From: Methylococcaceae bacterium
GTDB lineage: Bacteria; Pseudomonadota; Gammaproteobacteria; Methylococcales; Methylococcaceae
Direction of reading: 5' to 3'
Length of the DNA stretch: 64,000 nt
Assembly (NCBI GenBank): GCA_044237765.1
Contig: JBIIEQ010000010.1
Span: 468-64,467, forward strand
Part shown: in pieces, positions 3,838-45,238 of the stretch
Layout: each line of letters opens with the position of its first letter
Numbering within the stretch: position 1 is the first letter of the stretch
Notes under the pieces: generated by a model
What the model saw: the letters and a program-made list of their open reading frames with translations, nothing else
Databases searched by the model: none
What the model was told of the DNA's origin: nothing
Position numbers and translations under genes: made by a program

Positions 3838-3969
3838 TCGGGACTGGCTGTTATCGGCCGATATCCCGACAGGAGCGGGATATCGGCCACGGTCTGCGGC
3901 CTTGGTGCCCGATGACGGTGGGCGTCGTCAGTAGCGGCCGACTTGGGTCCCATCATCAGGATATCGATA

Positions 3970-6843
3970 ATGAATGTTCCAGCCAAAGCGCAATGGAAGG
4001 TCATTGCCAGTTCGGGTGAAGCGTCCCTGGCGATCGATGATCGCTATGCCACGAGCTGGGTGAGCGAGCCCTCGGTCAGGGCATGGCTGCAAATCGATCT
4101 GGGCCGGGTGGCCACCCTGGCGGGCATTGAGGTGTATTGGGGCCGGTCGGTGGCGGACGTCTATGGGTTTGAAGCCTCTCTGAGTGGCCAGGATTGGGCG
4201 CCGCTCTGCAACACCCGCCATGGGGAGGGCGGGCAGAATGTGTTTGGCTTTCCGCCGGTCGAGGCTCGCTATGTGCGCCTGACTGATCAGGATCTGGGAC
4301 CGGAGCGGGTGCTCGATATTGTCGAGATCAACGTCTATGGTCCTGAAGATGCCATCCGGGTACTGGAGCCCGGGCGGATCGTCGCCCTGGGTCAGGCACC
4401 GGTGACGCTGTTGCCGGGTGAGAGCATCACGGTGGATTTTGGTTATATCCGGCCACCGATCGGCGCCCTGATCGAGTGGGGAGAGACCTATGGGACGGTT
4501 TTTTCGGTTCACCTTTCTGATGACGGACAGGACTTCCGTGAAGTGGGCCGGATTACCACCAGCAGCGGCAGTTATGACAACTTCTACTGGCGGTCGACCA
4601 CCAGTCGCTATTTTCGGCTGACTATCCACGAGACCAGCTCGCCGCAAGGCGCTGTCATCAATGAGCTGAAACTCCGCATCCTCAACAAGGACCGCATGCC
4701 GATTGGTCGGCTGGAGCGGGCGGCGCAGGACGGCCCCGGCGAGCTTTATCCGCAATCGTTGCTGGGTCGCCAGGTGTACTGGACCGCGCTGGGCGAGTTC
4801 GATCATCCGGAACAGGCCCTGTTTGATGAGTTCGGCAATCTGGAGGCCCAGGCGGGTATCGGGCAGCTGATGCCCCTGATCCGGCTGAGTGGCGTTCTGC
4901 ATGGCGCTCCCGGCGCCCCGGCGATTGCTCACTCGTTGGTCGACGGCTCGTTGCCGATCCCTTCAGTGAAATGGCGTCTTGCCGGCCTGGATGTCGAGGT
5001 CACGGCCTTGGCTCATGCGAGTCAGGCTGTGGTGGAGTACCGGCTGATTAATGCCGGTTCAAACCGACTGGATGGTTCACTGGTACTTGCCATTCGCCCG
5101 GCCCAGATCAATCCCTATTGGCAGCATGGTGGGCACGCCATTATCGACTCCATCAGGGTGGATGACCGGCAGGTTTGGGTGAATGATCGGCCTTACGCTA
5201 GCCTGTCCGAACAACCGGAGAGTGTCTGCATCGCTGATTTTGACCAGGGTGACATCGTCAATTTAATTGCCGACGGGGCCAGAAAGTCGCTGCCCAGTCT
5301 TCAATCGATTTCCGGTCTTTTGAGCGCGGCCCTGGAGTTCAGCTTTGCGCTGGCACCCGGCGAAGCCAGAAGTATTGTCGTTTCTGCCCCCATGCGGGAT
5401 GGCATCAATCCCAACACCCCCGTTTCGTTCGAAGATTTACGGCATCAGGTCATTCACCGCTGGCGCGAGAAACTCGGTCCGCGGCGGATTATGGTCGGTG
5501 ATCCCGAAGTCAGCGATACGGTAGAGGCCCAGACGGCCCTGATTCTGGTGAATGCCACCCAGTTTGCCTTCAAGCCCGGCCCGCGCAATTACGACCGCAT
5601 CTGGATTCGGGATGGTTCTTCGCAGGCGCTGGCGTTGCTTTGGGCGGGGCTGGTTGATGAGGCCAAACGCTATGTCCTCTGGTATGCGGAACGCGTCTAC
5701 GACCATGGCATGGTGCCGCCGATTCTGAACCCGGATGGCACCGTCAATCGGGGGTATGGCAGCGATATCGAATACGATGCCCAGGGCGAGTTTGTCACGA
5801 TTGCGGCGGATATTTATCGGATCAGCCGAGATGCCGATTTCCTGAGGGCCATCTACGAACCCGTTGTCCGTGCCACCCGATTCATCGAAGTGCTGTGTGC
5901 AGAGACCCATGCCCAATATGGGCCGGAGAGCCGGTTCCATGGCCTCGTCGCGCCCTCTATCAGCCATGAGGGATACAACAAGCCGAGCTTCAGTTATTGG
6001 GATGATTTCTTTGCCCTGAGTGCCTGGCGCAACTGCACGTATTTGGCCAGGGAGATCGGTGACGAGGCCACGGCGAGCGATGCCGATACGAAGGGTCGGG
6101 CGTTTGCCGAAGGGCTGACACGATCCTTGCGGCTGACCGCAGAGGCCCAGGGGAACGGCATGATTCCCGCTTCGGCGGATCGCGAGGATGTCGATCCGAC
6201 CTCGACATCGATCGCCTTCGAGCCATGCCGCGTGGGCGATGTCATTCCCGCTGATCTGATCCAGCCCACCTACGATCATTATGCTCATCATCTGGCCGTG
6301 ATTCGTGCGCCGGGCTTTGCCGGCGGATTTACTCCCTATGAGATTCGCAATCTCAATGCTTTTGTGGCGCTGGGCCGCTATGAAGATGCCTTTGGCTTGC
6401 TGAATGATGCCCTGACATGGCGCCGGCCCGCTGGCTGGCGTCACTGGGCGGAAGTGCTCTGGGGTGACCCTCGGGCTGCCGAGTACATCGGCGATATGCC
6501 GCACACCTGGATCGGTGCCGAATATGCGACGGCGGTTCGGCGGATGTTGTTGCGGGAGAACGGCAACACCCTGGAACTGTTCAGGGCTGTTCCCGATACC
6601 TGGTGGGCCGGCGAGGGCATCCGGCTGAACATGCTGCCGACTGCTTTTGGCTGGGCCAATCTGAGAGCCGAGCGGAGCACTGCTGGGGCGACGGTCACGC
6701 TGTCCCTGTCGGGGCCGGTGCCTGAGCGGATCACGCTACGTTATCCGGGGGTCCGTCGCGCCATGGCCGATGGGGTGCCTTGTGCCATTGAGGGTGACCT
6801 GATTTTTGCCCCCTGTTTCAGACAGCTTTCAATCGAAGCCTGA
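3970..6843 (+). CDS. Tandem discoidin (F5/8 type C) domain protein fused to an (alpha/alpha)6-barrel glycoside-hydrolase-like domain (GH15-like WIRDGS motif)
   Basis: N-terminal WKVIASSGEASLAIDDRYATSWVS...WLQIDLGRVATLAGIEVYW and a second ...YFRLTIHETSSPQGAVINELKL are discoidin-like. C-terminal half has PGPRNYDRIWIRDGSSQALALLWAG, typical of glucoamylase-type barrels. No signal peptide. Alternative TTG start at 3943. Confidence 0.65.
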   Translation: MNVPAKAQWKVIASSGEASLAIDDRYATSWVSEPSVRAWLQIDLGRVATLAGIEVYWGRSVADVYGFEASLSGQDWAPLCNTRHGEGGQNVFGFPPVEARYVRLTDQDLGPERVLDIVEINVYGPEDAIRVLEPGRIVALGQAPVTLLPGESITVDFGYIRPPIGALIEWGETYGTVFSVHLSDDGQDFREVGRITTSSGSYDNFYWRSTTSRYFRLTIHETSSPQGAVINELKLRILNKDRMPIGRLERAAQDGPGELYPQSLLGRQVYWTALGEFDHPEQALFDEFGNLEAQAGIGQLMPLIRLSGVLHGAPGAPAIAHSLVDGSLPIPSVKWRLAGLDVEVTALAHASQAVVEYRLINAGSNRLDGSLVLAIRPAQINPYWQHGGHAIIDSIRVDDRQVWVNDRPYASLSEQPESVCIADFDQGDIVNLIADGARKSLPSLQSISGLLSAALEFSFALAPGEARSIVVSAPMRDGINPNTPVSFEDLRHQVIHRWREKLGPRRIMVGDPEVSDTVEAQTALILVNATQFAFKPGPRNYDRIWIRDGSSQALALLWAGLVDEAKRYVLWYAERVYDHGMVPPILNPDGTVNRGYGSDIEYDAQGEFVTIAADIYRISRDADFLRAIYEPVVRATRFIEVLCAETHAQYGPESRFHGLVAPSISHEGYNKPSFSYWDDFFALSAWRNCTYLAREIGDEATASDADTKGRAFAEGLTRSLRLTAEAQGNGMIPASADREDVDPTSTSIAFEPCRVGDVIPADLIQPTYDHYAHHLAVIRAPGFAGGFTPYEIRNLNAFVALGRYEDAFGLLNDALTWRRPAGWRHWAEVLWGDPRAAEYIGDMPHTWIGAEYATAVRRMLLRENGNTLELFRAVPDTWWAGEGIRLNMLPTAFGWANLRAERSTAGATVTLSLSGPVPERITLRYPGVRRAMADGVPCAIEGDLIFAPCFRQLSIEA

Positions 6844-13541: not shown

Positions 13542-14162
13542 TTATGAGGGCTTTTTGGGAAGACATCTGATCTGCCGGTCATGCCATCGCGAAAGCATCA
13601 ATAAGGCCACGGCCGCCCCGATGAGTGCAAACAGCATATCGCTTTGCGCATCCCACACATCGCCCTGGGTGCCGAGGAAATCAACGGCGCCGTCCCCAAA
13701 GACTTCTGCTACCAGCCACTCCAATAGTTCATAAGTTGCACTGATCGCCAGCACGATGCAGGTAATCAGAAAAACCCGCATGCGGTTGCCATTCACAAAT
13801 TGACCCCGGATCAGGATTTCGCGTGCCGCAATAGCCGGTACCAGGCCCTGAAAAAAGTGGCCGATCTTGTCGTATGGATTCCGGTCGAGCCCCAGCCATT
13901 CTTGCAGCGCGAAGCCTAGGGGCACTCGTGCGTAGGTGTGTGTTCCGCCGATGATCAGCACGATGGCATGCAAAAAGATCAGGCTATAGAGCAGCACCGT
14001 CAGCGGGAAGCGTCGGCAGGTCAGCCACAGAACAGGCAGGACCAGCATGACCGGGAGTGTTTCCAGTAACCAGGTCGGCAGGTCATGGGCATGGAGGCCG
14101 GACCACATGAGCAGGCCGATCAGCGTCATCGACAGCAGGCCCAGCAATGGGGGGCGGGTCAT
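13542..14162 (-). CDS. DUF2238 (YjdF-like) inner-membrane protein
   Basis: Multi-TM protein with PYDKIGHFFQGLVPA and DVWDAQSDMLFALIGA motifs. Start set at MTRPPLL; the ORF track extends to 14198. Confidence 0.6.
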   Translation of the reverse strand: MTRPPLLGLLSMTLIGLLMWSGLHAHDLPTWLLETLPVMLVLPVLWLTCRRFPLTVLLYSLIFLHAIVLIIGGTHTYARVPLGFALQEWLGLDRNPYDKIGHFFQGLVPAIAAREILIRGQFVNGNRMRVFLITCIVLAISATYELLEWLVAEVFGDGAVDFLGTQGDVWDAQSDMLFALIGAAVALLMLSRWHDRQIRCLPKKPS

Positions 14163-14236
14163 CAAGCATCTATTTAGGATTCGGTGTCCCGACAGCATGT
14201 GCGTTCAGCGGCGGGCCGATTGGTCGTACAACCACA

Positions 14237-14620
14237 TCAGATCATCGCAATGACCAGAAGATAAGCGGCGCATACCAGCAACACGGCGAAAGTCAAAGTC
14301 ATCCCGAAGACCCTGAAATTAAAGTTCTCAGGGGTTCGGCTGACACCGATGGCATGCGAAACCCGCCCTATGACCAGAGTGGTACCCAGCGCGTGAACGA
14401 GCAGAGGGTGTGCTGCCGAAGACTCAACAAGGAAAATGAGCAACAGAGCGATTGGCACGTATTCGGCACAGTTCGCCTGTACCCTCATTGCTCTCAGCAT
14501 GTCGGGATTTTCTTCGTGCCCAAGGGATATGCCCAGGCTACGGCGAAGGCGAATGGTTCGTATGCTGAGATATACGAAGAGAAAAGCGAGCAGAGATGCG
14601 TAAATCGAGACGATCGTCAT
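14237..14620 (-). CDS. MAPEG-family membrane protein
   Basis: 127 aa, 3-4 TM, VYLSIRTIRLRR...LRAMRVQANCAEYVPIALLLIFL is typical of bacterial MAPEG/YecN-like proteins. Confidence 0.65.
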   Translation of the reverse strand: MTIVSIYASLLAFLFVYLSIRTIRLRRSLGISLGHEENPDMLRAMRVQANCAEYVPIALLLIFLVESSAAHPLLVHALGTTLVIGRVSHAIGVSRTPENFNFRVFGMTLTFAVLLVCAAYLLVIAMI

Positions 14621-14705: not shown

Positions 14706-15473
14706 TTAGGCTTTTCCACCGGATAACAAGCCTTGCACCCGCCGCAGGTCGGCCTCGGTATCCACACCGGCATGCGGGGCGGATTCTACCGGGACGACGA
14801 GGACACGCTCGCCTTGCCAGAGGATGCGCAACTGTTCGAGTGCTTCGACCGACTCCAGTTGCGAGGCAGGCCAACGGACATAGCGCCGCAGGAAGCCGGC
14901 GGAGTAGGCGTAAATGCCGATGTGCCGTAGCCACGGGTAATCGCTGGCCGCCTGGCGGTCGGTCTGGCCGAAACTTTCACGATGCCAGGGAATCGGGGCC
15001 CGACTGAAATAGAGGGCGTGGCCGTGGCGATCCAGCACCACCTTGACAGCATGCGGGTCGAAAACATCCGAGGGGTCATCGATGGGGGCGGCCAAGGTGG
15101 CGATACTGGCTGTCTGTTGTCCGGCCAGGGCGTCGGCCAGTTGGCGAATCAAGTCGGGTTGCATCAGTGGTTCGTCGCCCTGCAGGTTGACCACGAGCGT
15201 GTCATCCGGCCAGTTCAGTTGATTGGCCACTTCGGTGATGCGTTCTGTGCCGCTAGTGTGGTCCTCGCGGGTCATGACGGCCGTCACGGGCAGGCTGGCA
15301 ACCGCCTCGGCAATACGTCCGTCATCGGTTGCCACAAAAACTTCAGGGCCAGCCTCCAGGGCTCGCTCGCAGACGTGAACGATCATAGGCTTCCCGGCGA
15401 TATCCAGCAGGGGCTTGCCGGGCAACCGGCTCGAGCCATGCCGGGCAGGGATGACAATCTTGAAATGGGTCAT
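14706..15473 (-). CDS. kdsB: 3-deoxy-manno-octulosonate cytidylyltransferase (CMP-KDO synthetase)
   Basis: FKIVIPARHGSSRLPGKPLLDIAGKPMIVHV, NLQGDEPL, IGIYAY. Start at MTHFK (ATG 15473), 255 aa. Confidence 0.92.
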   Translation of the reverse strand: MTHFKIVIPARHGSSRLPGKPLLDIAGKPMIVHVCERALEAGPEVFVATDDGRIAEAVASLPVTAVMTREDHTSGTERITEVANQLNWPDDTLVVNLQGDEPLMQPDLIRQLADALAGQQTASIATLAAPIDDPSDVFDPHAVKVVLDRHGHALYFSRAPIPWHRESFGQTDRQAASDYPWLRHIGIYAYSAGFLRRYVRWPASQLESVEALEQLRILWQGERVLVVPVESAPHAGVDTEADLRRVQGLLSGGKA

Positions 15474-15520
15474 GGATTCTTGTTCGTGTTGATATGGGGC
15501 TGACAACCAGCCGCTTCAGA

Positions 15521-16297
15521 CTAGCGGATGCCGGGGCGGGTTTCGACTCCGTCATTTTCGTTGATGACCTTGGTTTTCGGAATCATCAACTTCGCCAGTT
15601 GCCGGTTCTTGATCCACACGCCCAGTCTGAACAGAAGCAGGAAAACAATGCCAAGTCCATAAAAGAGCGGGTCTGCGAGGTTGCCTTTCAACTGCATCGC
15701 GTAGTGAACGATAACGGCCACCGAGGCCGGATAGATCCAGCGATGCAGTTTTTTCCAGCGACGCCCCATGATTTTCATGGCGGCAGTGGACGAAGTCAGG
15801 GCCAGAAGCAGCAGAACGATGAACGCGAAGAGCCCAAACCAGATGTATCGGGTTTCAAGGATATCTATTGTGATGGATGACCAGATGAGGCCTTGATCGA
15901 TCCACAGATAGCCATAAACGTGGAGTGCCGTATAAAAAAAACTGGTGAGTCCGAATAGTTGCCGAAAGGTGGCCATGCCTTTCCATCGGGTCATGGTCTG
16001 GACGGGGGTCACGAACAGCGTGACGAGCAGGAAACGCAGGGACCAGATTCCGGTGAAAAGATGAAAACCCTCGATGGCGTTGGGACCCAGTCCGCCCGAT
16101 GCAATGAGAAGCAGAAGTTCGCCAAGCGGAAGGACACAAAGCGTCAGGCAGGCATTCCAGGGGTCAGACAACCAGACACACACTCGTATGACCCGAGGCG
16201 ATGTGACGCCGTAAGCCAGAGGGTCCAGTGATTTTTTCTGCTTTCGGAGGACCTGGATGAAGTCTCTCGATAATCCCCAAAGGTCGATTTGGCTCAT
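15521..16297 (-). CDS. msrQ: Methionine-sulfoxide reductase heme-binding membrane subunit MsrQ (YedZ), longer than usual
   Basis: Ferric-reductase-like TM protein with conserved His in TALHVYGYL and VIVHYAMQ. Its start overlaps the msrP stop. 258 aa with N- and C-terminal extensions. Confidence 0.8.
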   Translation of the reverse strand: MSQIDLWGLSRDFIQVLRKQKKSLDPLAYGVTSPRVIRVCVWLSDPWNACLTLCVLPLGELLLLIASGGLGPNAIEGFHLFTGIWSLRFLLVTLFVTPVQTMTRWKGMATFRQLFGLTSFFYTALHVYGYLWIDQGLIWSSITIDILETRYIWFGLFAFIVLLLLALTSSTAAMKIMGRRWKKLHRWIYPASVAVIVHYAMQLKGNLADPLFYGLGIVFLLLFRLGVWIKNRQLAKLMIPKTKVINENDGVETRPGIR

Positions 16298-17253
16298 CAG
16301 AATTGTCGCTTCAGGTCGATCCCCTGGTAGAGAGAAGCGACCTCGTTGCCATATCCATTGAAGATTTCAGTTTTCCTTCTGGGGGTAAAGAAGGGGTCGC
16401 CGAGAGGCCTCTCTGTTGCCTGACTCCAGCGCGGATGGGGCACTGTCGGGTTCACGTTGGCGTTGAAACCATAATCATCCGGGGCCGCCAGCATCCAGCT
16501 GGAGCTTGGTGGGCTGTCAAGAAGTTCGATCTTGACGATGGCCTTGATGCTCTTGAACCCATATTTCCAGGGAACAACCAATCGGAGTGGGGCGCCGTTC
16601 TGTAGGGGTAGATCGCGACCGTACATCCCGGTAGCGAGGATAGTCAGGGAATGCATCGCCTCGTCCAGTTGAAGACCCTCGGTATACGGCCAGGGTAGGA
16701 GCTTGTTCTCCCGCTGCATCGGCATGGCCTCGGGCTGGGTGACCGAACTGAACCGGACGAATTTTGCACTTGACAGGGGCTGGACTGTCTTCAAGAGCTC
16801 ACCCAGATGAAACCCTTTCCAGGGAACCACGGCGGACCAGCCTTCCACGCAGCGAAAGCGATAGATGAATTCTTGTTGATTAAATCGCTTTAGCAGGTCT
16901 TCCAGGCCCCATTGAGCAGGCTTTTCGCAAAGGCCTTCGATGCTGACAATCCATGGGTCGGTCTTGAGTTTTCCTGCGAGTCGCGAGGGTGATGTCTTGT
17001 CCCAGCCAAACTCATAGTAGTTGTTGTATTGCGTCACGGCATCGAAAGGGCTCGGTGTCAGGCTCTCAGCGTCGGGCGAAGAATTGGCCTTTGCGACCGT
17101 CTGAGCGAAGGCTGAGCGCATCCCAAGGGCCGGCAATGTCGCGGAGACTCCGATCAGGGATCCCATCGTTTGGACCCATCGACGTCTCTCGTGCCAGACC
17201 TTTTCGTCCGTGATCTCGCTTGGTCGGATCAGTGGTCGCGTCCTTATCAACAT
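16297..17253 (-). CDS. msrP: Periplasmic molybdopterin-dependent methionine-sulfoxide reductase catalytic subunit MsrP (YedY)
   Basis: Tat-type leader RRRWVQTMGSLIGVSATLPALGMRSAFA. YNNYYEFG, FRCVEGWS, NGAPLRLVVPWKYGFKSIKAIVKIEL. Confidence 0.92.
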   Translation of the reverse strand: MLIRTRPLIRPSEITDEKVWHERRRWVQTMGSLIGVSATLPALGMRSAFAQTVAKANSSPDAESLTPSPFDAVTQYNNYYEFGWDKTSPSRLAGKLKTDPWIVSIEGLCEKPAQWGLEDLLKRFNQQEFIYRFRCVEGWSAVVPWKGFHLGELLKTVQPLSSAKFVRFSSVTQPEAMPMQRENKLLPWPYTEGLQLDEAMHSLTILATGMYGRDLPLQNGAPLRLVVPWKYGFKSIKAIVKIELLDSPPSSSWMLAAPDDYGFNANVNPTVPHPRWSQATERPLGDPFFTPRRKTEIFNGYGNEVASLYQGIDLKRQF

Positions 17254-17340
17254 CCCGCTGGAACTCTTGTTGATTTTGGGCGCCCTGCGGATGAAATTGA
17301 TCCCGTCATCCGGAGCACCCTCCTCATATCAATCATGTCT

Positions 17341-17784
17341 TTAGGCCTTAATCATCTCGTTCAGCTTGCGGATTTCCTCTTCGGCGTCCACCTTGTAGGT
17401 GATGTCGTACTGAACGCCTAGGTAATACAGGAGCGAACCCTTGTTGTCATAGAGAGGTGTGATTTCCAGGCGATTGTGAAAGAGGGTTCCGTCCTTCCGG
17501 TAGTTTTTCAGGGTCACGGAACATCCCTCCTTTTTGGCGAGGGCTTGCCGCAGGATATCGAGTTGCGGTTGGTCCTTGTCGGATCCCTGTAGAAAACGGC
17601 AATTTCGGCCAATGATCTCGTCCTGCGAATAGCCAGTCAGCCGCTCAAATGCCTCATTCGCATAGATGATCGGACAGTCATCCTGATCCGGATCGCTCAG
17701 TGTCACGCCATTGACACAGTGGTTAAGAATCGTAGTCAGAACCTGCGGGATGAGTCCGGTGTCCTTTCTTAGAATGAGTGGCAT
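17341..17784 (-). CDS. Short LOV-domain blue-light photoreceptor, copy 1 (no effector domain)
   Basis: GRNCRFLQGSDKDQ (photoactive Cys), LKNYRKDGTLFHN, YLGVQYDIT (conserved Gln), C-terminal helical tail AEEEIRKLNEMIKA. Strong likeness to Pseudomonas putida PpSB1/PpSB2 short LOV proteins. Confidence 0.9.
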   Translation of the reverse strand: MPLILRKDTGLIPQVLTTILNHCVNGVTLSDPDQDDCPIIYANEAFERLTGYSQDEIIGRNCRFLQGSDKDQPQLDILRQALAKKEGCSVTLKNYRKDGTLFHNRLEITPLYDNKGSLLYYLGVQYDITYKVDAEEEIRKLNEMIKA

Positions 17785-17808
17785 GAAAATTCTCCGGGGG
17801 AGGTTCTG

Positions 17809-18297
17809 TCAGGTGCTTGATGTTTTTGGGTGGCTGAGCAGGGTCGAGAGTGTCGCTAGCGTGCTTTCGACGCCCTCGATCATGGCGCTGCGAATCAGCT
17901 TCACGAAGGGCCGCATGAAGAGGTCGACCTCAAGTAATTCGAATCGGAATGTCAGGTGGCTTTTGCCATGGCTGACCGGATCGATTCTATAAATTTGTCG
18001 ATAGGGCATATCGATTCCCTCAAAAGAGAAGGTATCGAAAGCCTCAAGTTCCTTGATCTCAAAGGTGGATGTGATCTGCTCATCGTTTTCCAGACGGACC
18101 TGACGGATTCGGGTCCCTTTTTTGACTGGAACTGGATCGAGACATTCAAGTTCGATGACATCCGTCATCCAGCGTGGGTAATTTTCATGGAAGTGGCCTG
18201 CTATGAAGTCGAAGACCTGTGCCTGTTCCCGGTCGATCATGGCCGACGCTTCAGCCGTGACAGGGTCGCTTCGATTCACGTTCAATTTCAATTCCAT
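17809..18297 (-). CDS. SRPBCC (START/Bet v1-like, polyketide-cyclase-fold) protein, copy 1; paralogue of 20402..20881
   Basis: Shares ENYPRW, STFxI, FEG and RPFxKLxRxA motifs with the 159-aa paralogue. Ends 24 nt before LOV copy 1. Start set at ATG 18297 (the track uses TTG 18330). Confidence 0.65.
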   Translation of the reverse strand: MELKLNVNRSDPVTAEASAMIDREQAQVFDFIAGHFHENYPRWMTDVIELECLDPVPVKKGTRIRQVRLENDEQITSTFEIKELEAFDTFSFEGIDMPYRQIYRIDPVSHGKSHLTFRFELLEVDLFMRPFVKLIRSAMIEGVESTLATLSTLLSHPKTSST

Positions 18298-18361
18298 GAT
18301 CTTGTGCCCCGGACGGTTAGGTAATTGCAAGGCGGTTGTCTCTTGTGACCACAGCTGGCGC

Positions 18362-19180
18362 CTAATTCGACCCCTTTCTGGGGATTATCCTGAGTATCCT
18401 CCGGAAGTGATTTTCTGTGAGCAAGGCCAGACAGAACAGTTGCAGGAAATTCTCCGCGATGATGACTTCCAGTCCCAGATTGACCGGCACTGTCTCAAGT
18501 CGGGTCCCAAAAAGCCTATCCCAAAACGCCAGAACGATGCCGTAGTTGCTGTCGTGCTCCTTGCGCAATGCCGAATGATGGGTTCGGTGTAGCGAGGGGG
18601 TGATGATCCAGTTGGACAAGGTGTCCTCGTTGGGAATTTTCACATTGGCGTGATGAAACAGGATAAACACCAACTGTATGGCCTCCATGGCCAGGACAAT
18701 GTGGGCATCGACGCCAATCAGAATGACGAAAAGACATTTGAAGGGTATTTCGATCAGAAGATCAAACACATGAAACCGGAATCCGGTCGTCACGTTATAG
18801 GATTTGTCGCTGTGATGAACCTTGTGGAAGCGCCAAAAAAATTCGTTGTGATGGTTCAGTACATGCCAGGCGTAGATGGCCAGATCATAAAGCAGGAAGG
18901 TGACCAGCCAGCGAAACGGCCCTTCCGCCATTCCGTTGAGCAACCCGTAGCCTGCAAACTGTTGAGCCACAAAGAAGAGCGATGTGGCCCGAATCAGGGT
19001 CAGAACAACGTTGTTGAAAAAAAACGCCGAGAGGTTGGTAAGTACAGACTCCTTGGTCGTCGACTTGTCGAATTTCCGGTAAGGATGTTTTTTTTCGGCG
19101 TAAAGAAGAAAGAAGAAGGCAACTAACGAAATAAAAATGAAAGTGTTGCTTACGACTTCCGCGAGTCTATCGGTGACCAT
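18362..19180 (-). CDS. Membrane fatty-acid hydroxylase / sterol desaturase superfamily enzyme (His-box di-iron)
   Basis: His boxes HVLNHH, HKVHHSD, HHANV and HRTHHS in a multi-TM protein. Start set at MVTDRL (ATG 19180), preceded by AGGGGG with a 5-nt spacer. The ORF track extends to 19237. Confidence 0.78.
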   Translation of the reverse strand: MVTDRLAEVVSNTFIFISLVAFFFLLYAEKKHPYRKFDKSTTKESVLTNLSAFFFNNVVLTLIRATSLFFVAQQFAGYGLLNGMAEGPFRWLVTFLLYDLAIYAWHVLNHHNEFFWRFHKVHHSDKSYNVTTGFRFHVFDLLIEIPFKCLFVILIGVDAHIVLAMEAIQLVFILFHHANVKIPNEDTLSNWIITPSLHRTHHSALRKEHDSNYGIVLAFWDRLFGTRLETVPVNLGLEVIIAENFLQLFCLALLTENHFRRILRIIPRKGSN

Positions 19181-19399
19181 GGATGCCCCCTGAAATCTCA
19201 CTTCCTTGACCATTACCCATGTGTTCGATTTCACCAAGCTTAACGGTAACGGTCATGTCACGGTGTCTTTTCAGACCCACCCTTTGTGAGGAAAGTTCGG
19301 GATGTATTAGCGGGAGATGGTGGCCCAGCCTTGGGGTGTTGATAACCTCGATTGAATCCTGGTTTTGCAGGAAATTCATATCCGAAAAGACTAAGCGGC

Positions 19400-19840
19400 T
19401 CATGCGGGAGATCTATATTTGCGGGCGGCTTGCCGGCAAAAGGCTTCCACCATGGAACCGGTGACCTCCTTGAATAAGCCGCCAAAAGCCATGCTCAGAA
19501 GGGCGTTTGCAAACTCGAAATCCAGGCTGAATGTGGCGGTGCAACCGCCGTCCCCACTCGGCTCGAATCGCCAGATCCCGTTCAATTTCTTGAATGGGCC
19601 ATCGACGAGTCGCATTCGAATGGATTTGCCGGGTTCCATGGTGTTCTCTGTCGTAAAGGACAATTTCACTTTGGATTTCGCAATGGTGATGGTGGCCTTG
19701 AGCTTGCCCGGCGATTCCTCGAGAAGTTTGACTTCGCTGCACATGGGGATGTAGCTCGGGTAGGCTTGCACATCGTTCACCAAGTTGAACATTTCCATGG
19801 GCGAATGCGTTACACAAACACTGGTCGATACATTGGGCAT
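19400..19840 (-). CDS. RatA/COQ10-like SRPBCC protein (ubiquinone/lipid-binding START fold)
   Basis: 146 aa. LVNDVQAYPSYIPMCSEVKLL, VDGPFKKLNGIWRFEP, FEFANALLSMAFGGLFKEV match the RatA/YfjG/Coq10 pattern. Confidence 0.78.
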   Translation of the reverse strand: MPNVSTSVCVTHSPMEMFNLVNDVQAYPSYIPMCSEVKLLEESPGKLKATITIAKSKVKLSFTTENTMEPGKSIRMRLVDGPFKKLNGIWRFEPSGDGGCTATFSLDFEFANALLSMAFGGLFKEVTGSMVEAFCRQAARKYRSPA

Positions 19841-19891
19841 GGGCTGTCGGCTCCTGGATATTTGAGTATCTCGATGGTCGAAGCGGATGTG

Positions 19892-20350
19892 TCAGGCCAA
19901 CTTTGGCATGCCTTCCAATGCTTGGCTCAAGCGATTAATCTCTTCTTCCGCCTGGACTTGCTGAGTTACGTCATATTGAACGCCGAGGTAATAAATCAGA
20001 TTGCCTTCATGGTCGAATAGTGGGGTAATCGCCAGATGGTTGTAGAACAGCTCGCCATTTTGACGGTAGTTTCTCAACGTAACCTCAACGGGCTGGCAGG
20101 CATCAATGGCCTCCCGCAGCGCTGCTCGAGCCTCCTGATCACGGTCATCGCCCTGCAGGAATCGGCAGTTCTTTCCCACGACCTCCTCCTGACTGTACCC
20201 GGACATGGTCGCAAAGGCTTTGTTGGCATAAACAATCGGCATGTCGGGTAAGTCTGGGTCGGCCAGGGTCACGCCATTCACGCAGGAATCAAGGATTTTG
20301 GACAGCATGTTGGGAATGATCCCAGGGTCTTTTTCAGGAATAAAAAACAT
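19892..20350 (-). CDS. Short LOV-domain blue-light photoreceptor, copy 2 (no effector domain)
   Basis: GKNCRFLQGDDRDQ, LRNYRQNGELFYN, YLGVQYDVT, helical tail AEEEINRLSQALE. 81 of 147 positions are identical to copy 1 in my gap-free hand alignment. Confidence 0.9.
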   Translation of the reverse strand: MFFIPEKDPGIIPNMLSKILDSCVNGVTLADPDLPDMPIVYANKAFATMSGYSQEEVVGKNCRFLQGDDRDQEARAALREAIDACQPVEVTLRNYRQNGELFYNHLAITPLFDHEGNLIYYLGVQYDVTQQVQAEEEINRLSQALEGMPKLA

Positions 20351-20401
20351 CGACCTGACCTCTTGTGACGAAATAATGGCAATCGGCTTTAACTAAACTC
20401 G

Positions 20402-20881
20402 TCAAGCGCTTGGGGCTTCGCGCTCGATCAGACCTTTAAGGTTTTTCACGGTTCTGTCCGCACCATCCTGGACAGCCACGCGAACCAGTTTTTCAAAGGG
20501 ACGAAGTATGGGTTCCAGTTCCGGGAACTCGAACGTAAACGTGACCCGCGTCAATGCGGACGCACCGTTTGGCTCCTCGAAATCATAGATACATCGATAT
20601 TTGTTCGAAACACCCTCAAAGGCTATTTTGCTGTCCGGCAGCAAATCAGTGATCCTGAAGGTCGAGTCTGACTTACGCCCGTGATCGACCCGAATTTGGC
20701 GCATCAGGCTGCCTACTTTCAGCGGCCCATCGGATAGTTTTTTCAGGTCGATGACCTCGCTGGACCACCTTGGGTAATTTTCAAAGAAATCTTCGGCAAC
20801 GAACTGGTACACGTCTTCCAGGCGAAGTCGGACGAGCCCGGAGGCTTTGCCTATGACCGGCTTGGGCGAGCCAAAAAACAT
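20402..20881 (-). CDS. SRPBCC (START/Bet v1-like) protein, copy 2
   Basis: FVAEDFFENYPRWSSEVIDL, STFRITDL, AFEGVS, LRPFEKLVRVAVQDG. Ends 51 nt before LOV copy 2. Confidence 0.65.
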   Translation of the reverse strand: MFFGSPKPVIGKASGLVRLRLEDVYQFVAEDFFENYPRWSSEVIDLKKLSDGPLKVGSLMRQIRVDHGRKSDSTFRITDLLPDSKIAFEGVSNKYRCIYDFEEPNGASALTRVTFTFEFPELEPILRPFEKLVRVAVQDGADRTVKNLKGLIEREAPSA

Positions 20882-20934
20882 GATCTAACTCCACGTTGGA
20901 ATTTTGTAGGGACAGCACCGAGGAAACATACAGT

Positions 20935-22089
20935 TCAAATGACAAATGTATCCAGCCCCGCTAACAGGAGATCGTATTGTGCTTCGACGATTTCCTTGAT
21001 GAGCGTGGCGGGTTGTCCGGCCACAATGTTTTGAGGTAATCCAAGCCAGCCGACCGCATCGTTTGGACCCATGCTGATCACATAACCGAGATCGCGATGA
21101 ATGTAAGGTTCCAGCAATTTCACTTTGCTGGAATGCCTCAGTACATTGTGTGCGACCAGTCGTCCCTTGCGGAGCGCTGTCTGGGCGCTGAGTGAGTTTG
21201 ATCCGGGTTTGTTGAAACGCGAGCAGTCGCCGGCCGCAAAAATTTTGGGAAGAGTTTTGCCTTCTAGTCGAACCTGCCCAAAAACATTTGTATCAATCAC
21301 AGGCTCGGGACGCATTCCCATGAACAAAAACGCGGCCTTTGACGGTAGTTGGCTGATTTCCCCCGTCTCCTTGTTTTCGATTTCGATGCTGTCTGACGTT
21401 TGCGCCTTGAAGTAGTGATTAGGGAAAAAATCGGTTCCTGTGTCTTCAAGGCGAGAGACAACGTATTTCCCCAATTTTGGGTTGAACTGCGAAAGGGGTG
21501 CATCCGCGCCATCCACCAGCCGCAAATGCCAATCCAAGCCTTGTTGTTTGATGTAGTGTGAAATTTCAAATAAAAACTGAATGCCGGTGGCGCCGGAGCC
21601 CACCAGGGTGAGCCAGACACCTTCAGCGCTATTGCCCTCGACCGCCCGGTTGAGGATTTCCGGACCCGAAGTGCGGGCAAAATCCTCCAGCCCGAAACAA
21701 TGATCGATGGCTTTGTGATGTTTGGAGCCTGTGCCGGTCGCCCAGATCAGGTAGTCGAATTCGATGAAGTCGCCGTTGATTTCCAGAAAGCCATCACTGG
21801 CCCATTGTTGTAATGAATCCTCTTCATAGGCAAGACAGGCCTGGATGTGGCGAGCGTCAAAACGCTTGGTAAGCAAATCGAACGGAACCCAGAATTCACT
21901 CAAGGGGCGGCGAAAGCTTTCATGCAAATGCGTGACCTTGAGATGCTGGTCCCGCGGGTCGATCAGCACGATTTCAGCTTCGGGGCTGTGTTCACGTAGC
22001 GCGACCAAAGCCGATAATCCAGCATAGCCTCCCCCGACAATGATGACTTTAGGTGCCTTGTCGGAAGGCAGATAAAAGGGCATGAACAT
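20935..22089 (-). CDS. NDH-2-like FAD/NAD(P)H-dependent pyridine-nucleotide-disulfide-family oxidoreductase
   Basis: Two Rossmann motifs, KVIIVGGGYAGLSA and LTLVGSGATGIQF. IFAAGDCS near the C-terminus. 384 aa. Confidence 0.8.
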   Translation of the reverse strand: MFMPFYLPSDKAPKVIIVGGGYAGLSALVALREHSPEAEIVLIDPRDQHLKVTHLHESFRRPLSEFWVPFDLLTKRFDARHIQACLAYEEDSLQQWASDGFLEINGDFIEFDYLIWATGTGSKHHKAIDHCFGLEDFARTSGPEILNRAVEGNSAEGVWLTLVGSGATGIQFLFEISHYIKQQGLDWHLRLVDGADAPLSQFNPKLGKYVVSRLEDTGTDFFPNHYFKAQTSDSIEIENKETGEISQLPSKAAFLFMGMRPEPVIDTNVFGQVRLEGKTLPKIFAAGDCSRFNKPGSNSLSAQTALRKGRLVAHNVLRHSSKVKLLEPYIHRDLGYVISMGPNDAVGWLGLPQNIVAGQPATLIKEIVEAQYDLLLAGLDTFVI

Positions 22090-22190
22090 GTTGACCCCGG
22101 CTTTAGTGGATGGGTGGTGACTGCTTGTGGCTGAAGGAGATCGGTTGCTGGTGGATAGTCAAGGCGACACGCTGGTAGGTTATTTGCCGG

Positions 22191-22748
22191 TCAGGGCTTT
22201 TCAGCCAATGCGGCCTCGATAGCCAGTCTGAGCAGGAGATCGTCAGGCTCGACATTCGAGGGAAAAACCTTGAGTACCTTGCCTTTTCGGTCAATCAGGT
22301 ATTTCTGGAAATTCCATTGTGGAGGGGTGCCTGACTGTTTTGTCAGTTCCGTGAAGAATGCATTAGCATGGTCACCCGATACGGCGCTCTTGCTGAACAT
22401 GGGAAAGGTTACGCCGTAATCGTTGAAGGAAACCTTAGCCGTTTGGCCCGGGTCTTCGTGTTCCTGTTTAAAGTCGTTCGAGGGAAAACCGAGGATCACG
22501 AATCTTTTGTTCTTGAACTCTTGGTACAGAGATTCAAGTCCCTTGAACTGGGGGGTGTAGCCGCACTGACTCGCCGTATTAACGGCAAGGATCACTTTTC
22601 CCCGGTAGGCTTCACAGAAATTAACAGGTCCTCCACCCAGCAAGGGGGCGCCGGAATATTGGAGTAGGGGAGGGCACTCACTGGAGTCCGCGATGGTCAG
22701 GGAGGGTCCCATGGCCATGAGTAAGGCAAAAGCAGGTAGCAAATTCAT
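22191..22748 (-). CDS. Glutathione peroxidase family protein with signal peptide (periplasmic)
   Basis: VNTASQCGYTPQFKGLESLY, FVILGFPSNDFKQEHE, WNFQKYLIDRKGKV. Leader MNLLPAFALLMAMGPSLTIA. Confidence 0.88.
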   Translation of the reverse strand: MNLLPAFALLMAMGPSLTIADSSECPPLLQYSGAPLLGGGPVNFCEAYRGKVILAVNTASQCGYTPQFKGLESLYQEFKNKRFVILGFPSNDFKQEHEDPGQTAKVSFNDYGVTFPMFSKSAVSGDHANAFFTELTKQSGTPPQWNFQKYLIDRKGKVLKVFPSNVEPDDLLLRLAIEAALAEKP

Positions 22749-22809
22749 CCCTTCTTCCTCCCGGTTGTCGTTGCTCGAATCTTCCGATTAGTAACCTTTG
22801 GTGTCCCCT

Positions 22810-23118
22810 TTAGCGGTTTAGTTGCAATAGTCGCCTACGGAGCCAATGCAGAGGCTTCCGCCAATCACGATGGCGGGTGAATCGCTCAATTTCCGCGTCG
22901 AAGAAAGCTCGAGCCAGCATTTCATCGGAGGGGGAGTAGCCGTATCGTTTTAGCCATGCCTCCTTTGCTTCAGCTTGCAGCCGATAGTAGGCGTAATCGT
23001 AGGCCGTATTGGCGTCATAGCTGAGTGTCTCCTTCCGGTGATCAATGCCCCGGCTACGAAGCTCATCGAAAAACCAGCGACGCAGTGTCAGGTAATCCTG
23101 TTTATCAAAAGTGCTCAT
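22810..23118 (-). CDS. Hypothetical soluble protein, Trp/Arg/Tyr-rich, no recognisable domain
   Basis: ORF 22810..23190. Start probably MSTFDKQDY (ATG 23118), giving 102 aa. Co-oriented, first gene after ycaR. Confidence 0.4.
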   Translation of the reverse strand: MSTFDKQDYLTLRRWFFDELRSRGIDHRKETLSYDANTAYDYAYYRLQAEAKEAWLKRYGYSPSDEMLARAFFDAEIERFTRHRDWRKPLHWLRRRLLQLNR

Positions 23119-23267
23119 ATGCTGTCTTGTCAGCCGGGTGTCGAGGGTTGGTTCATGTGGCCAGGGCCATGAGCCTCGAGAATGCTTCATGCCGCTTGGG
23201 GCTCCCTCTATGGAGCTTCCAGTCTGTCTGAAGTTCCATCATCCCGGATTCGGGGGCTTACAAGGAC

Positions 23268-23477
23268 TTACTCAACCAATGGGGTTTTCCTAGGTAGTGC
23301 ATCGTATTCTTCCAGACTGATTCGCCGAGCTTCGCCTTCCAGCATGACGGGAATGCCATCGCGAATTGGATAGGCCAGCCGGTCGGCCTTACAGATGAGT
23401 TCCTGCTCTTCCTTTTTGTAGATCAGATCGCTCTTGCAAACCGGGCAGACGAGAATTTCAAGCAGTTTTTTGTCCAT
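23268..23477 (-). CDS. ycaR: Trm112/YcaR family (UPF0434) zinc-ribbon protein
   Basis: [20 protein letters not shown]...[18 protein letters not shown], 69 aa. Overlaps the lpxK 3' end. Confidence 0.88.
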
Positions 23478-24483
23478 GAGTCTTTATCTTCAGTTGTGTG
23501 AGTAGTTGCTCGCCAAAGGCGTCGGGGAGTTGAGCCTGTAACGGGATGTACCAATGATTCGGGTTCGCGAATTGCCGGCATTTGACGGCGTCCTTCTCTG
23601 TCATGAACAGGGGGCTGGAACCGGCGAAAGCGAGGTCTTCGCGCCGGTAGGCATGATGGTCCGGAAAGGCGCGGCTCTCCACGGTAAGTCCCCGCCGTCG
23701 CAAATCGTCAAAAAACCGTTGCGGGTGGCCAATGCCCGCCATCGCATAGGTCTTCTCTCCCGCGAAATGGTCGAGGGGACGGTGCTGCTCGGGGTTGGCC
23801 AGGTTGACGGCAGCGTTACTGGCCAGTGACATGACGATGCTGTCCTCGGGGCCGGTGCCGGAATAAATGACCCAGTCGACGGTTTCAAGGCGCGCAGGCG
23901 GTTCGCGCAGCGGGCCGGCAGGGAGGCAGTGACCGTTGCCGAAGCCGCGGACGCCATCCACCACGGCAATCTCGATGTCGCGGGCCAGCGCATAGTGTTG
24001 CAGGCCATCGTCGGCAATGAGAATGTCGCAGTTACCGGCGGCCAGCAGGGTGCTTCCGGCTTCGGCTCTTCGCGGATGGATGCATACCGGGCAGCCACTG
24101 CGGCGTGCGATGAGGACGGGTTCGTCGCCAGCTTCCTCGGGTGTCGTCTCTAGGCCGACGATCAGCGGGCGGGACTGCTTCTTTCCGCCATAACCCCGAC
24201 TGATGATACCGGGACGATATCCATGATGCTTCAACAAGTCGGCGAGCCATAGCGTCAATGGCGTTTTGCCGGTGCCGCCCACGGTGAGGTTGCCGACGAC
24301 GATCACCGGCACGGGGAGCCGGTCGACCTTTTTGCGGTCCCGTCGATAGGCGTTTTGTCGCGCCCTGACGGCCTGTATGAAGAGTTTTTCCGCTCCCGTC
24401 AGGAAAGGACTGGGAGCGGGGGTTTCATACCACTGACGTTGCAACCATGAATGGAGGGATTGGTTCAGGCTCACGGGGATCAA
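23458..24483 (-). CDS. lpxK: Tetraacyldisaccharide 4'-kinase
   Basis: [19 protein letters not shown]-loop, ISRGYGG, DDGLQH. 341 aa. Confidence 0.92.
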
Positions 24484-25539: not shown

Positions 25540-25724
25540 TGCACTCGCTTGGTGGTGTGTGACAGGCGGTTTGGTTTGGGGCCTGGATCGCCATTACCTC
25601 ATTGATTCTAACATCCGCAACATCGCCTCGAGGTTTTTGGGGAAGCGGGATCAGGTTGCGGCGTCCGGGTGGGCTCCGGATAATCCGGGAGGTTATTCAG
25701 CTATTGAACACAGGAGTCAAAAAG

Positions 25725-26273
25725 ATGAGCGAGAGAATTATCATGCGGACTGGCGAGGCCCTGGTTGCAGGTGGTCCGCCTTTCACGGCGGCCGAGCCTG
25801 AGGTGGTCATCGGTGAACTGGACGGGCCCTTTGGCACGGCCTTCGCCAATCTCCTGGGTGATCAGGTCAAGGGTCATACGCGGGTCCTGGCGCTCATGAA
25901 TACGGACATGATGGTGCGCCCCGCCACGCTGATGGTCAGCAAGGTGACGGTCAAGGCGACTGCGTATACCAATATTCTCATGGGGACTGTCCAGGGTGCG
26001 ATTGCCAATGGTGTGCTGGATGCGGTGCGTAACGGCACTATCCCCAAGGAAAAGGCCAACGATCTGGGGATAATCGTCTCGGTCTGGCTTAATCCCGGAA
26101 TTACCACTGTTGCGGATCTTGATCATGAAGCGCTATTCACCATCCATCGCGAGGCTACCCGCAGGGCCTTGGAGAAAGCGATGAAGTGTGAGCCCAGCGT
26201 TGATTTCCTTCTGGAAAACCAGGAAAAGCTCGTTCACAAGTACTACCAGAATGCCCTGGACGCCCGCAAATAG
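25725..26273 (+). CDS. Formaldehyde-activating enzyme (Fae) family protein, divergent paralogue
   Basis: Aligns by eye with Methylorubrum Fae: TGEALV, IGELDGPFGTAFANLL, GHTRVLAL, RPATLMVSKVTV, GTVQGAIANGVLDAVRNGTIP, ANDLGIIVSVW. ATG 25725 is preceded by CAGGAG. The track ORF starts at 25602. Confidence 0.72.
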   Translation: MSERIIMRTGEALVAGGPPFTAAEPEVVIGELDGPFGTAFANLLGDQVKGHTRVLALMNTDMMVRPATLMVSKVTVKATAYTNILMGTVQGAIANGVLDAVRNGTIPKEKANDLGIIVSVWLNPGITTVADLDHEALFTIHREATRRALEKAMKCEPSVDFLLENQEKLVHKYYQNALDARK

Positions 26274-43221: not shown

Positions 43222-43228
43222 GAACACG

Positions 43229-45193: not shown

Positions 45194-45238
45194 TCATTCA
45201 TCAAAGCTTTTTCGAATTTTCTTCCGCTGGAGTCACCG

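Follow-up and report, generated by a model that had tools for sequence, protein, structure and literature searches.

In the 64,000-nucleotide window analyzed here, the conserved lpxK-ycaR-kdsB unit is interrupted by a block of eleven genes that is probably a lineage-specific insertion of three modules native to the genus, likely serving light- and oxidation-related defense of the envelope and reading into kdsB. The block is not foreign to the lineage; its genes are native ones in a new arrangement. ORF and domain calls place eleven co-oriented ORFs on the minus strand at 15521–23190, between kdsB (ATG at 15473) and ycaR (stop at 23268), in agreement with the preliminary description of this DNA, which had reported eleven same-strand genes splitting ycaR from kdsB and a 47-nt distance from msrQ to kdsB; the latter figure was also verified. 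The tight three-gene adjacency is absent from the window's genome (G000), where kdsB now lies 7.8 kb from ycaR. The genes and junction that frame the block are as follows:

14706–15473, minus strand: kdsB (CMP-Kdo synthetase; Pfam CTP_transf_3, 4e-62); the ATG at 15473 is the start used in relatives.
15474–15520, minus strand: msrQ-kdsB spacer, 47 nt, the right-hand insertion junction, aligned to the empty site in G003.
23268–23477, minus strand: ycaR (Trm112-like; Pfam Trm112p, 2e-19), the left border gene, 97% identical to the G003 protein.
23458–24483, minus strand: lpxK (Pfam LpxK, 3e-108), the upstream member of the interrupted unit.

Comparison with 41 related genomes reveals that lpxK, ycaR and kdsB are contiguous in most of them, with a gap between lpxK and kdsB of ~200 nt in nine (G003, G005, G007, G008, G013, G002, G021, G024 and G020) and also in most genomes from other families of the order. 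Whether ycaR and kdsB adjoin elsewhere had been posed as a question, and alignment to these genomes gives the answer: the two genes adjoined ancestrally, and the block was inserted at their junction in a single lineage. At the empty site of G003, the nearest block-less relative, the gap between ycaR and kdsB is 3 nt (TAA-ATC-ATG), and the alignment at the junction reads 'GGTTGAGTAA-ATC-ATGACC'; the insertion point is this 3-nt spacer joining the ycaR stop to the kdsB start. Among the genomes compared, the block was found only in G000 and its two nearest relatives, G001 and G017; these closely related species group together with support, G003 and then G005 being the successive outgroups. Because only those three carry it, the block entered their common ancestor. 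The carriers are a small clade of lake Methylococcaceae. A different arrangement is seen in another subclade of the genus, where lpxK is altogether detached from exbBD, ycaR and kdsB.

The eleven genes fall into three modules. In the direction of transcription, module C consists of a small helical protein and a secreted glutathione peroxidase; module B of an NDH-2-like reductase, an SRPBCC protein, a short LOV protein and a Coq10-like SRPBCC protein; and module A of a membrane di-iron hydroxylase, an SRPBCC protein, a short LOV protein, MsrP and MsrQ. In order of coordinate, the genes are:

15521–16297, minus strand: msrQ, heme-binding membrane subunit (NCBIfam MsrQ, 131.4 bits against a cut-off of 130, marginal; Pfam Ferric_reduct).
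16297–17253, minus strand: msrP, periplasmic molybdopterin methionine-sulfoxide reductase (NCBIfam MsrP equivalog, 423 bits; cut-off 207).
17341–17784, minus strand: short LOV photoreceptor A, 147 aa, with GRNCRFLQG (PAS_9, 2e-22; YtvA-family model, 3e-48).
17809–18297, minus strand: SRPBCC protein 1, directly upstream of LOV A (Pfam Polyketide_cyc2, 1e-8).
18362–19237, minus strand: membrane di-iron hydroxylase of the FA_hydroxylase superfamily, module A gene 1 (Pfam FA_hydroxylase, 1e-26; start codon uncertain).
19400–19840, minus strand: SRPBCC protein 2, Coq10/RatA type, last gene of module B (Pfam Polyketide_cyc, 2e-34).
19892–20350, minus strand: short LOV photoreceptor B, 152 aa, with GKNCRFLQG (PAS_9, 1e-21; YtvA-family model, 4.5e-47).
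20402–20881, minus strand: SRPBCC protein 3, directly upstream of LOV B (Pfam Polyketide_cyc2, 1e-10).
20935–22089, minus strand: NDH-2-like FAD/NAD(P)H oxidoreductase, module B gene 1 (Pfam Pyr_redox_2).
22191–22748, minus strand: module C glutathione peroxidase with a signal-like segment at its N-terminus (Pfam GSHPx, 2e-25).
22810–23118, minus strand: small helical protein, 102 aa from Met25 in an ORF that reaches 23190; member of module C and the block's first gene.

The enzymes of these modules differ in how closely they can be assigned. The msrP and msrQ genes are adjacent, overlap by 1 nt and both exceed the curated cut-offs, and the MsrP translation shows an N-terminal signal containing RRR. 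In the hydroxylase, His boxes are visible and the OlsE-like match is weak (83 bits, where the cut-off is 475). SRPBCC protein 2 scores above the cut-off for PF03364 (119 bits), and reaches 146 bits against the 258 required of a RatA equivalog. Residues 12–378 of the module B reductase align with the NDH-2 enzymes of S. aureus (5na1, 4e-22) and Caldalkalibacillus (4nwz, 8e-16), a full-length similarity to characterized enzymes on which its predicted NDH-2-like identity rests; its matches to FSP1/AIFM2 are weak (E 1e-6 to 1e-8) and confined to partial stretches. The small helical protein has no Pfam match, and only 11 clusters of homologues were found, nearly all of ~102 aa; AlphaFold predicts a four-helix model (pLDDT 81), for which a fold search gave no match. 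Its gene is linked to that of the glutathione peroxidase in seven congeners.

It is informative to examine the block in light of where its parts reside in other members of the genus. Congeners hold modules A, B and C as separate units at other loci, and the genus as a whole shows no fewer than four contexts for them; module A, for example, lies between coaE and zapD in G006 and module B between zur and yjgA in G007, and both of these sites are unoccupied in G000. The block of the three carriers consists of these native modules set head to tail and all facing one way, an arrangement that arose in their common ancestor. In the module B tree the G000 clade is nested inside the genus, and a donor outside the lineage is not indicated. 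An alternative that we consider unlikely, yet worth real weight, is that the block or its modules came by horizontal transfer from the same genus or family and were not moved within the genome. The variety of contexts is in keeping with such transfer, as is the finding of no short LOV genes in the nearest block-less genomes, G003 and G005, although these assemblies are only 70% and 83% complete, respectively. Likewise, the GC content of the modules lies below that of their flanks everywhere (13 of 13 related loci examined), as is often the case in accessory genes. An AU test on module B mildly disfavors the species-like placement (p = 0.022), and therefore transfer from an unsampled congener, instead of relocation within the genome, keeps a minor share of our confidence; however, the group tested was chosen after the tree had been viewed, and the G018 branch is long. 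Furthermore, the protein divergence of the modules resembles that of core genes, no sampled genome is nearer in block genes (55–78% identity) than in core genes (52–74%), and the third-position GC is native-like. We thus favor consolidation of the lineage's own modules over their acquisition from a relative.

The base composition of the block at first sight suggests a more distant source. Its GC content is 52.2% compared with 56.8% for the genome, a difference of 4.6 points that places it at the 4th percentile among equal-sized windows of the genome, and sliding-window GC is 0.48–0.55 over ~15.5 to 23.6 kb versus 0.57–0.65 on both flanks, bearing out the lower GC recorded in the preliminary description. 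The right-hand step, however, had been put near 23.2 kb and is actually at ~23.5 kb, at the overlap of ycaR and lpxK; similarly, the 58–67% GC given for lines within kdsB, ycaR and lpxK fails for ycaR, which has only 49.5%. Despite its low GC, ycaR is native. The implied link between low GC and acquisition, in contrast, finds no support: GC3 of the individual block genes falls between the 9th and 48th genome percentiles (24th when pooled), the GC-normalized tetranucleotide correlation of 0.88 is at the 15th genome percentile, and the modules are low in GC in congeners too. The deficit is located in codon positions 1–2, and would stem from the amino-acid make-up of the block proteins rather than from recent import. 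A foreign genomic island from a distant, lower-GC donor would be suggested by the GC deficit, by the raw tetranucleotide distance (94th percentile) and by the interruption of a conserved operon, but is very unlikely given the ordinary GC3 and normalized tetranucleotide usage, the orthologous modules in congeners and a tree that nests the block within the genus. Searches for a tRNA gene at the block, meaningful repeats at its edges and recombinase domains in its genes were all empty, as had been claimed for integrase, tRNA and direct repeats. Low GC in an insertion that splits a conserved operon need not, therefore, mean foreign origin; in this case, functionally related native modules were probably brought together in one co-directional array without a mobile-element signature.

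It is harder still to accept that the block originally occupied the ycaR-kdsB junction and that the other lineages lost it by exact deletion. The broad occurrence of the modules in the family accords with this scenario, and nothing speaks directly in its favor; the tight adjacency of ycaR and kdsB extends across several families of the order, repeated exact deletions restoring a 3-nt spacer are implausible, and the modules lie at unrelated loci in other genomes. The genome is metagenome-assembled and in 152 contigs, but an assembly or binning artifact is scarcely credible when the junctions and gene order recur in two other assemblies (G001/L057; G017/L061 and L043) with separate GenBank accessions and isolate names.

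Within the inserted block of native modules, C and A would retain sigma-E-type promoters of their own. The sequence features relevant to this proposal are:

19271–19298, minus strand: ECF (sigma-E-type) promoter-like footprint GAACTT-N17-TCTGA, upstream of module A, conserved in relatives.
23209–23237, minus strand: ECF promoter-like footprint GGAACTT-N16-TCCATA in the spacer between ycaR and the block, kept in G000, G017 and G001.
42655–43221, plus strand: rpoE (RpoE equivalog, 314 bits), followed by rseA, rseB, rseC and degP up to 46678.

The sigma-E pattern (GAACTT at −35, a TCTGA-like −10 and 16–17 nt between them) was found in five genomes each for modules A and C. Specifically, CCGAACTTT-N15/16-GTC(T/G) is kept 5′ of the hydroxylase gene in G000, G001, G013, G018 and G015, whereas the surrounding sequence is not, and GGAACTA-N16/17-TCCAAG lies upstream of the homologue of the small helical protein in G006 and G010. 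The module B footprint of other genera is degenerate in the G000 clade. Across the whole genome, the strict form of this pattern shows no enrichment (6 matches versus ~11 expected). A Sigma70_r2 search of the window's genome gave five matches, only one of them a full ECF sigma factor, RpoE, which is thus a candidate reader of both footprints. No terminator-like site was found on the coding strand in any intergenic gap of the block, including that between msrQ and kdsB, where the absence of a terminator had been claimed; read-through into kdsB is plausible on this account, and the block now probably reads through into that gene. Transcripts of both the block and the lpxK operon would run on into kdsB.

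The two LOV proteins provide the clearest clue to what the array may sense. Both retain the photoactive-cysteine motif (GXNCRFLQ type), have no fused effector, include helical extensions at both termini and align end to end with the structures of Pseudomonas short LOV proteins, which are the closest solved structures to LOV A (7a6p, 2e-36; 3sw1); both qualify as short LOV proteins and are predicted to bind flavin and undergo a blue-light photocycle. SRPBCC-LOV gene pairs are widespread and conserved: a LOV gene follows a gene of the SRPBCC family at 54 of the 75 assessable loci, and ~23 clusters contain natural single-chain SRPBCC-LOV fusions. No solved structure is related by sequence to the SRPBCC family, whose module A member, SRPBCC protein 1 (alignment A1), has a start at MELKLN predicted from relatives. 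The family is concentrated in methane oxidizers and ammonia oxidizers, both of which are inhibited by light, and one fusion gene adjoins rhodopsin and carotenoid genes. To our knowledge, the only output shown so far for an effector-less short LOV protein is a LitR-type regulator, in Pseudomonas. The SRPBCC-LOV pairs and their natural fusions make a second output directly testable, and so bear on a standing question in photoreceptor biology, namely which partners receive the signal of effector-less short LOV proteins. Light-dependent binding to the product of a neighboring gene has been described for PmSB-LOV (PMC9758184). In the block, each LOV protein would pass a blue-light signal to its own SRPBCC partner, and the array would guard membrane lipids, quinones and periplasmic proteins from photo-oxidative damage.

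One can imagine a more ambitious reading, which we regard as speculative and doubtful: the block would be an antioxidant system of the membrane gated by blue light, a bacterial counterpart of FSP1-CoQ10/GPX4, built from recombinase-free, promoter-carrying cassettes. LOV, via SRPBCC, would act on the quinone- or lipid-directed enzyme encoded directly upstream (the NDH-2-like protein in module B, the di-iron hydroxylase in module A), and the Coq10-like protein, glutathione peroxidase and MsrPQ would complete a switched axis against lipid peroxidation. As cassettes, the modules would repeatedly settle inside housekeeping operons, at the ycaR-kdsB, coaE-zapD and zur-yjgA junctions. In the window's genome, this would couple the expression of kdsB, a normally essential LPS gene, to a stress-responsive array.

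Comparison with known systems places these proposals in context. The LOV proteins are most like PpSB1-LOV, PpSB2-LOV and PmSB-LOV of Pseudomonas, being effector-less, ~150 aa long, equipped with the photoactive cysteine and encoded next to a partner. However, the partner here is an SRPBCC (START-like) protein, fused to LOV in some bacteria, and there a MerR/LitR regulator (class II LitR); the linked genes here encode MsrPQ, NDH-2-like, Coq10-like, hydroxylase and glutathione peroxidase proteins, and there photolyase and furan fatty-acid genes. Compared with MsrPQ (YedYZ), the block MsrP and MsrQ clearly belong to the family and have genes that overlap, although they represent a second paralogue, the housekeeping copy of the genus being ~51% identical and located elsewhere; the block type is always accompanied by the LOV-SRPBCC pair and the membrane hydroxylase. 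The likeness to the eukaryotic FSP1-CoQ10/GPX4 systems is one of content only (an oxidoreductase of the NDH-2/FSP1 superfamily, a quinone-binding START protein of the Coq10 type and a glutathione peroxidase), with weak homology to FSP1 and light control that is here putative. Finally, the block resembles genomic islands as a multi-gene, lower-GC insertion within a conserved operon junction, but it differs from them in having no integrase, tRNA target or repeats, in its native codon usage, and in drawing its content from modules native to the lineage.

The eleven minus-strand genes at 15521-23190, between ycaR and kdsB of the Methylococcaceae genome G000 (3.40 Mb in 152 contigs, 56.8% GC; the window is bases 468-64467 of contig C42), are a genuine insertion, datable and non-canonical, in a gene junction that is ancestral. 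We searched for lpxK and kdsB in 41 genomes, from the organism's own to others of its genus, family and order. The two genes lie about 200 nt apart, with space for ycaR alone, in G003, G005, G007, G008, G013, G002, G021, G024, G020 and most genomes from the order's other families, which upholds the ycaR-kdsB contiguity expected in the preliminary description. G003 is the nearest genome to lack the block, and its junction, GGTTGAG-TAA-ATC-ATG-ACC, has just three bases between the ycaR stop and the kdsB start. In only three of the 41 genomes, G000 and its relatives G001 and G017, are lpxK and kdsB separated by about 8 kb, and all three carry a shared eleven-gene set with protein identities of 76-100%. 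A tree of lpxK and exbD, with good support throughout, gives ((G000,G017),G001), then G003, then G005; given this order and the restriction of the block to the three species, the insertion dates to their common ancestor. An assembly artefact is disfavoured, as the same junctions recur in three assemblies with different accessions and isolate names. The insertion per se is an ordinary type of rearrangement. Its interest lies in its content: two SRPBCC-LOV pairs among oxidative-repair genes, an arrangement of which we found no description in the searched literature. ORF calls returned all eleven co-oriented genes, given here with their flanks in order of transcription:

23268-23477, minus strand: ycaR, 49.5% GC
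First block gene, minus strand: small helical protein, 102 aa counted from Met25, a start judged from homologue clusters
Second, minus strand: glutathione peroxidase with a signal-like N-terminus
Third, minus strand: NDH-2-like flavoprotein, with a full-length alignment to type-II NADH dehydrogenases of solved structure (4e-22)
Fourth, minus strand: SRPBCC protein 3, preceding LOV B
Fifth, minus strand: short LOV protein B, motif GKNCRFLQG
Sixth, minus strand: Coq10/RatA-type SRPBCC protein
Seventh, minus strand: membrane di-iron hydroxylase, fatty-acid hydroxylase superfamily
Eighth, minus strand: SRPBCC protein 1, preceding LOV A
Ninth, minus strand: short LOV protein A, motif GRNCRFLQG, closest solved relatives the Pseudomonas short LOV proteins
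Tenth, minus strand: MsrP
Eleventh and last, minus strand: MsrQ
14706-15473, minus strand: kdsB

The flavoprotein also has a weak match to FSP1. The small helical protein has 11 homologue clusters in a search of 5.8 billion proteins, no Pfam match even at E 0.1 and, for its AlphaFold model (pLDDT 81), no fold match at E 0.001.

The low GC of the block is real, although its interpretation as a mark of acquired DNA does not hold. Sliding-window GC is 0.48-0.55 over about 15.5-23.6 kb versus 0.57-0.65 on either flank, and the block's 52.2% falls at the 4th percentile among genome windows of equal size. The preliminary description had placed ycaR in the high-GC class; its GC is just 49.5%, and the right-hand step therefore lies near 23.5 kb. 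As described, the borders are bare: there is no tRNA or recombinase domain, and border repeats are not above chance. Against foreign origin, the GC3 values of the eleven genes rank between the 9th and 48th percentiles among 2017 long ORFs (pooled, 24th), and the GC deficit is located in codon positions 1 and 2, where it reflects amino-acid composition. Tetranucleotide usage appears atypical as a raw distance (94th percentile), but the base-composition-normalised correlation with the genome is 0.88 (15th percentile), which is ordinary. Proteins of the module genes are 55-78% identical to those of congeners, parallel to the core genes kdsB and lpxK (52-74%), and in a concatenated tree of module B (NDH-2-like, SRPBCC 3, LOV B, Coq10-like) the G000 clade falls within the genus, with successive outer branches formed by G024, Methylocaldum and Methylotetracoccus. 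Furthermore, module GC is below flank GC in 13 of 13 related loci, in hosts whose flanks range from 49 to 63% GC; hence these genes are inherently low in GC wherever they are sited. The short LOV genes have no second copy in G000. To the question of foreign origin the evidence says no: the block is a consolidation of native modules.

These modules have relocated repeatedly. Module A (hydroxylase, SRPBCC 1, LOV A, MsrP, MsrQ) is found elsewhere in G013, G018, G006, G015 and, in another family, G040; module B in G018, G020, G024, G007, G006 and G013; and module C (small helical protein and glutathione peroxidase) in G015, G018, G012 and G016, with a divergent arrangement in G006, G010 and G019. 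The modules also occur in cultured bacteria: Methylotuvimicrobium buryatense 5G, Methylotetracoccus oryzae and Nitrosospira multiformis. In G006, coaE and zapD flank module A and run in its direction; in G000 the two are adjacent on contig C122, about 100 nt apart. Likewise, the Zur and YjgA genes flank a co-directional module B in G007 and are adjacent in G000 on contig C147. Module A of G018 and G015 occupies a third genomic context, modules B and A of G013 are adjacent and convergent, and no recombinase was found beside the module loci in G006, G007, G018, G015 or G013. The copy in the G000 clade may have moved within the genome, or it may have been transferred from an unsampled congener. 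Two observations lean towards transfer, each with a caveat: the nearest block-less genomes, G003 and G005, show no short LOV genes, but are just 70% and 83% complete; and an AU test is mildly against a species-like placement of module B (p = 0.022), but for a group picked post hoc and with a long branch involved. Two msrP paralogues occur in the genus. One is a housekeeping copy that shares about 51% identity with the copy in the block (contig C133:2126-3049 in G000, with counterparts in relatives); the other is the module A copy, which always accompanies LOV A. Partial msrP matches in G003, G002 and G010, considered as module A, are the housekeeping paralogue.

The "conserved" LPS unit is itself evolutionarily labile in this genus rather than inviolable. 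In a subclade comprising G009, G016, G015, G010, G004, G006, G018, G019 and G011 (loci L011-L019 and L009), lpxK stands alone, apart from exbBD, ycaR and kdsB. G017 has an extra insertion of about 1 kb within the 5′ end of kdsB (L043, contig C8, ~1790-2870), so the kdsB start looks like a recurrent insertion point. This insert encodes a toxin-antitoxin pair (a Gp49/HigB-like toxin and an HI1420-type antidote), is associated with a duplicated TTCAAAATCGTCA and provides a substitute kdsB N-terminus, MTAFKIV instead of MTHFKIV. On the far side of kdsB, G000, G001 and G017 have genes for a MAPEG-family protein and a DUF2238 protein (13542-14620, minus strand, in the window); G003 has unrelated genes there, and synteny is thus broken on that side as well. 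A Fae (formaldehyde-activating-enzyme) homologue at 25602-26273 (plus strand), which separates exbB from lysA, is missing from the same place in G003, where the gap is about 500 nt, and may be another small lineage-specific insertion. The GC3 of ycaR, over only 70 codons, is 0.56-0.64 in the three block-bearing genomes versus 0.71-0.76 in G003 and G005, despite 91-99% protein identity among all five. A Nitrosovibrio-type Trm112-like gene, divergent to module B and 72% identical to ycaR (L068 and L069, ~3100-4430), was considered as a link to ycaR; an ADP-ribosylglycohydrolase gene adjoins it, lpxK and kdsB are absent, and we treat it as a probable coincidence.

A footprint, CCGAACTTT-N15/16-GTC(T/G)GA (19271-19298), precedes the module A hydroxylase gene and is kept in G000, G001, G013, G018 and G015 while the adjoining sequence is not. 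The gene for the small helical protein is preceded by GGAACTT-N16-TCCATA (23209-23237), kept in G000, G017 and G001, with the variant GGAACTA-N16/17-TCCAAG in G006 and G010. Both footprints resemble the consensus of sigma-E/AlgU-type promoters. The module B footprint of other genera, GAATTT-N16-GTCTA, is degenerate in the G000 clade. A regulon defined by a strict sigma-E-like pattern was dropped, as the genome-wide count showed no enrichment (6 matches versus ~11 expected). A single complete ECF sigma factor, RpoE, was found in G000; a second match (contig C13) is a protein of 126 aa that has region 2 alone. The rpoE gene heads a canonical cluster:

42655-46678, plus strand: rpoE-rseA-rseB-rseC-degP

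As described from the sequence, no terminator precedes kdsB; none occurs on the coding strand in any intergenic gap, including the 47-nt msrQ-kdsB spacer. Since kdsB in G000 is without its 3-nt coupling to ycaR, it would most simply be transcribed by read-through from the block promoters and the lpxK operon.

It is informative to consider what the LOV pairs accompany. The neighbouring genes encode a methionine-sulfoxide repair system of the periplasm, a secreted peroxidase, a flavoprotein akin to quinone reductases, a START protein of the quinone-binding type and a membrane-bound hydroxylase, all of which, judging from their families, appear to concern oxidative envelope damage. Both LOV proteins are predicted to be intact, effector-less photoreceptors, and the block may constitute a defence of the membrane and the periplasm that is informed by blue light.

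The association of SRPBCC and LOV proteins extends well beyond this clade. In a locus scan with one genome per species, using a pattern from an 8-sequence SRPBCC subfamily alignment (a 15-sequence alignment had no sufficiently conserved stretch), a LOV gene lies directly downstream of the SRPBCC-3 family gene in 54 of 75 assessable loci, spanning Methylococcales, Nitrosomonadaceae, Competibacteraceae, Accumulibacter and others; an NDH-2-like gene lies directly upstream in 23 of 70. A query that concatenated the two proteins recovered about 23 clusters of natural single-chain SRPBCC-LOV proteins of 304-322 aa, from sources named Rubrivivax and Pelomicrobium among others, with the same part order, 92-97% of both parts covered, and the family motifs and LOV cysteine present. 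These fusions strongly suggest that the SRPBCC and LOV proteins act as one unit. In a Rubrivivax MAG (L166, 3555-6963) the fusion gene adjoins a bacteriorhodopsin-family gene and carotenoid genes (phytoene synthase, phytoene desaturase-like, lycopene cyclase); the Pyr_redox_2 gene before it, considered as an orthologue of the block reductase, is just 22% identical. Methylocystis and related Hyphomicrobiales have a LOV domain that shares 58-64% identity with LOV B (P0041-P0131) and is fused to a GlxA-family regulator with DJ-1/PfpI and AraC-HTH parts (about 488 aa), a different output architecture for the same LOV lineage in alphaproteobacterial methanotrophs. Neither a short LOV protein with an SRPBCC partner nor LOV in methanotrophs or nitrifiers was found in the literature searched. 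There is a precedent for a short LOV protein signalling via an adjacently encoded partner: PmSB-LOV binds the LitR repressor, encoded next to it, in the light only (PMC9758184).
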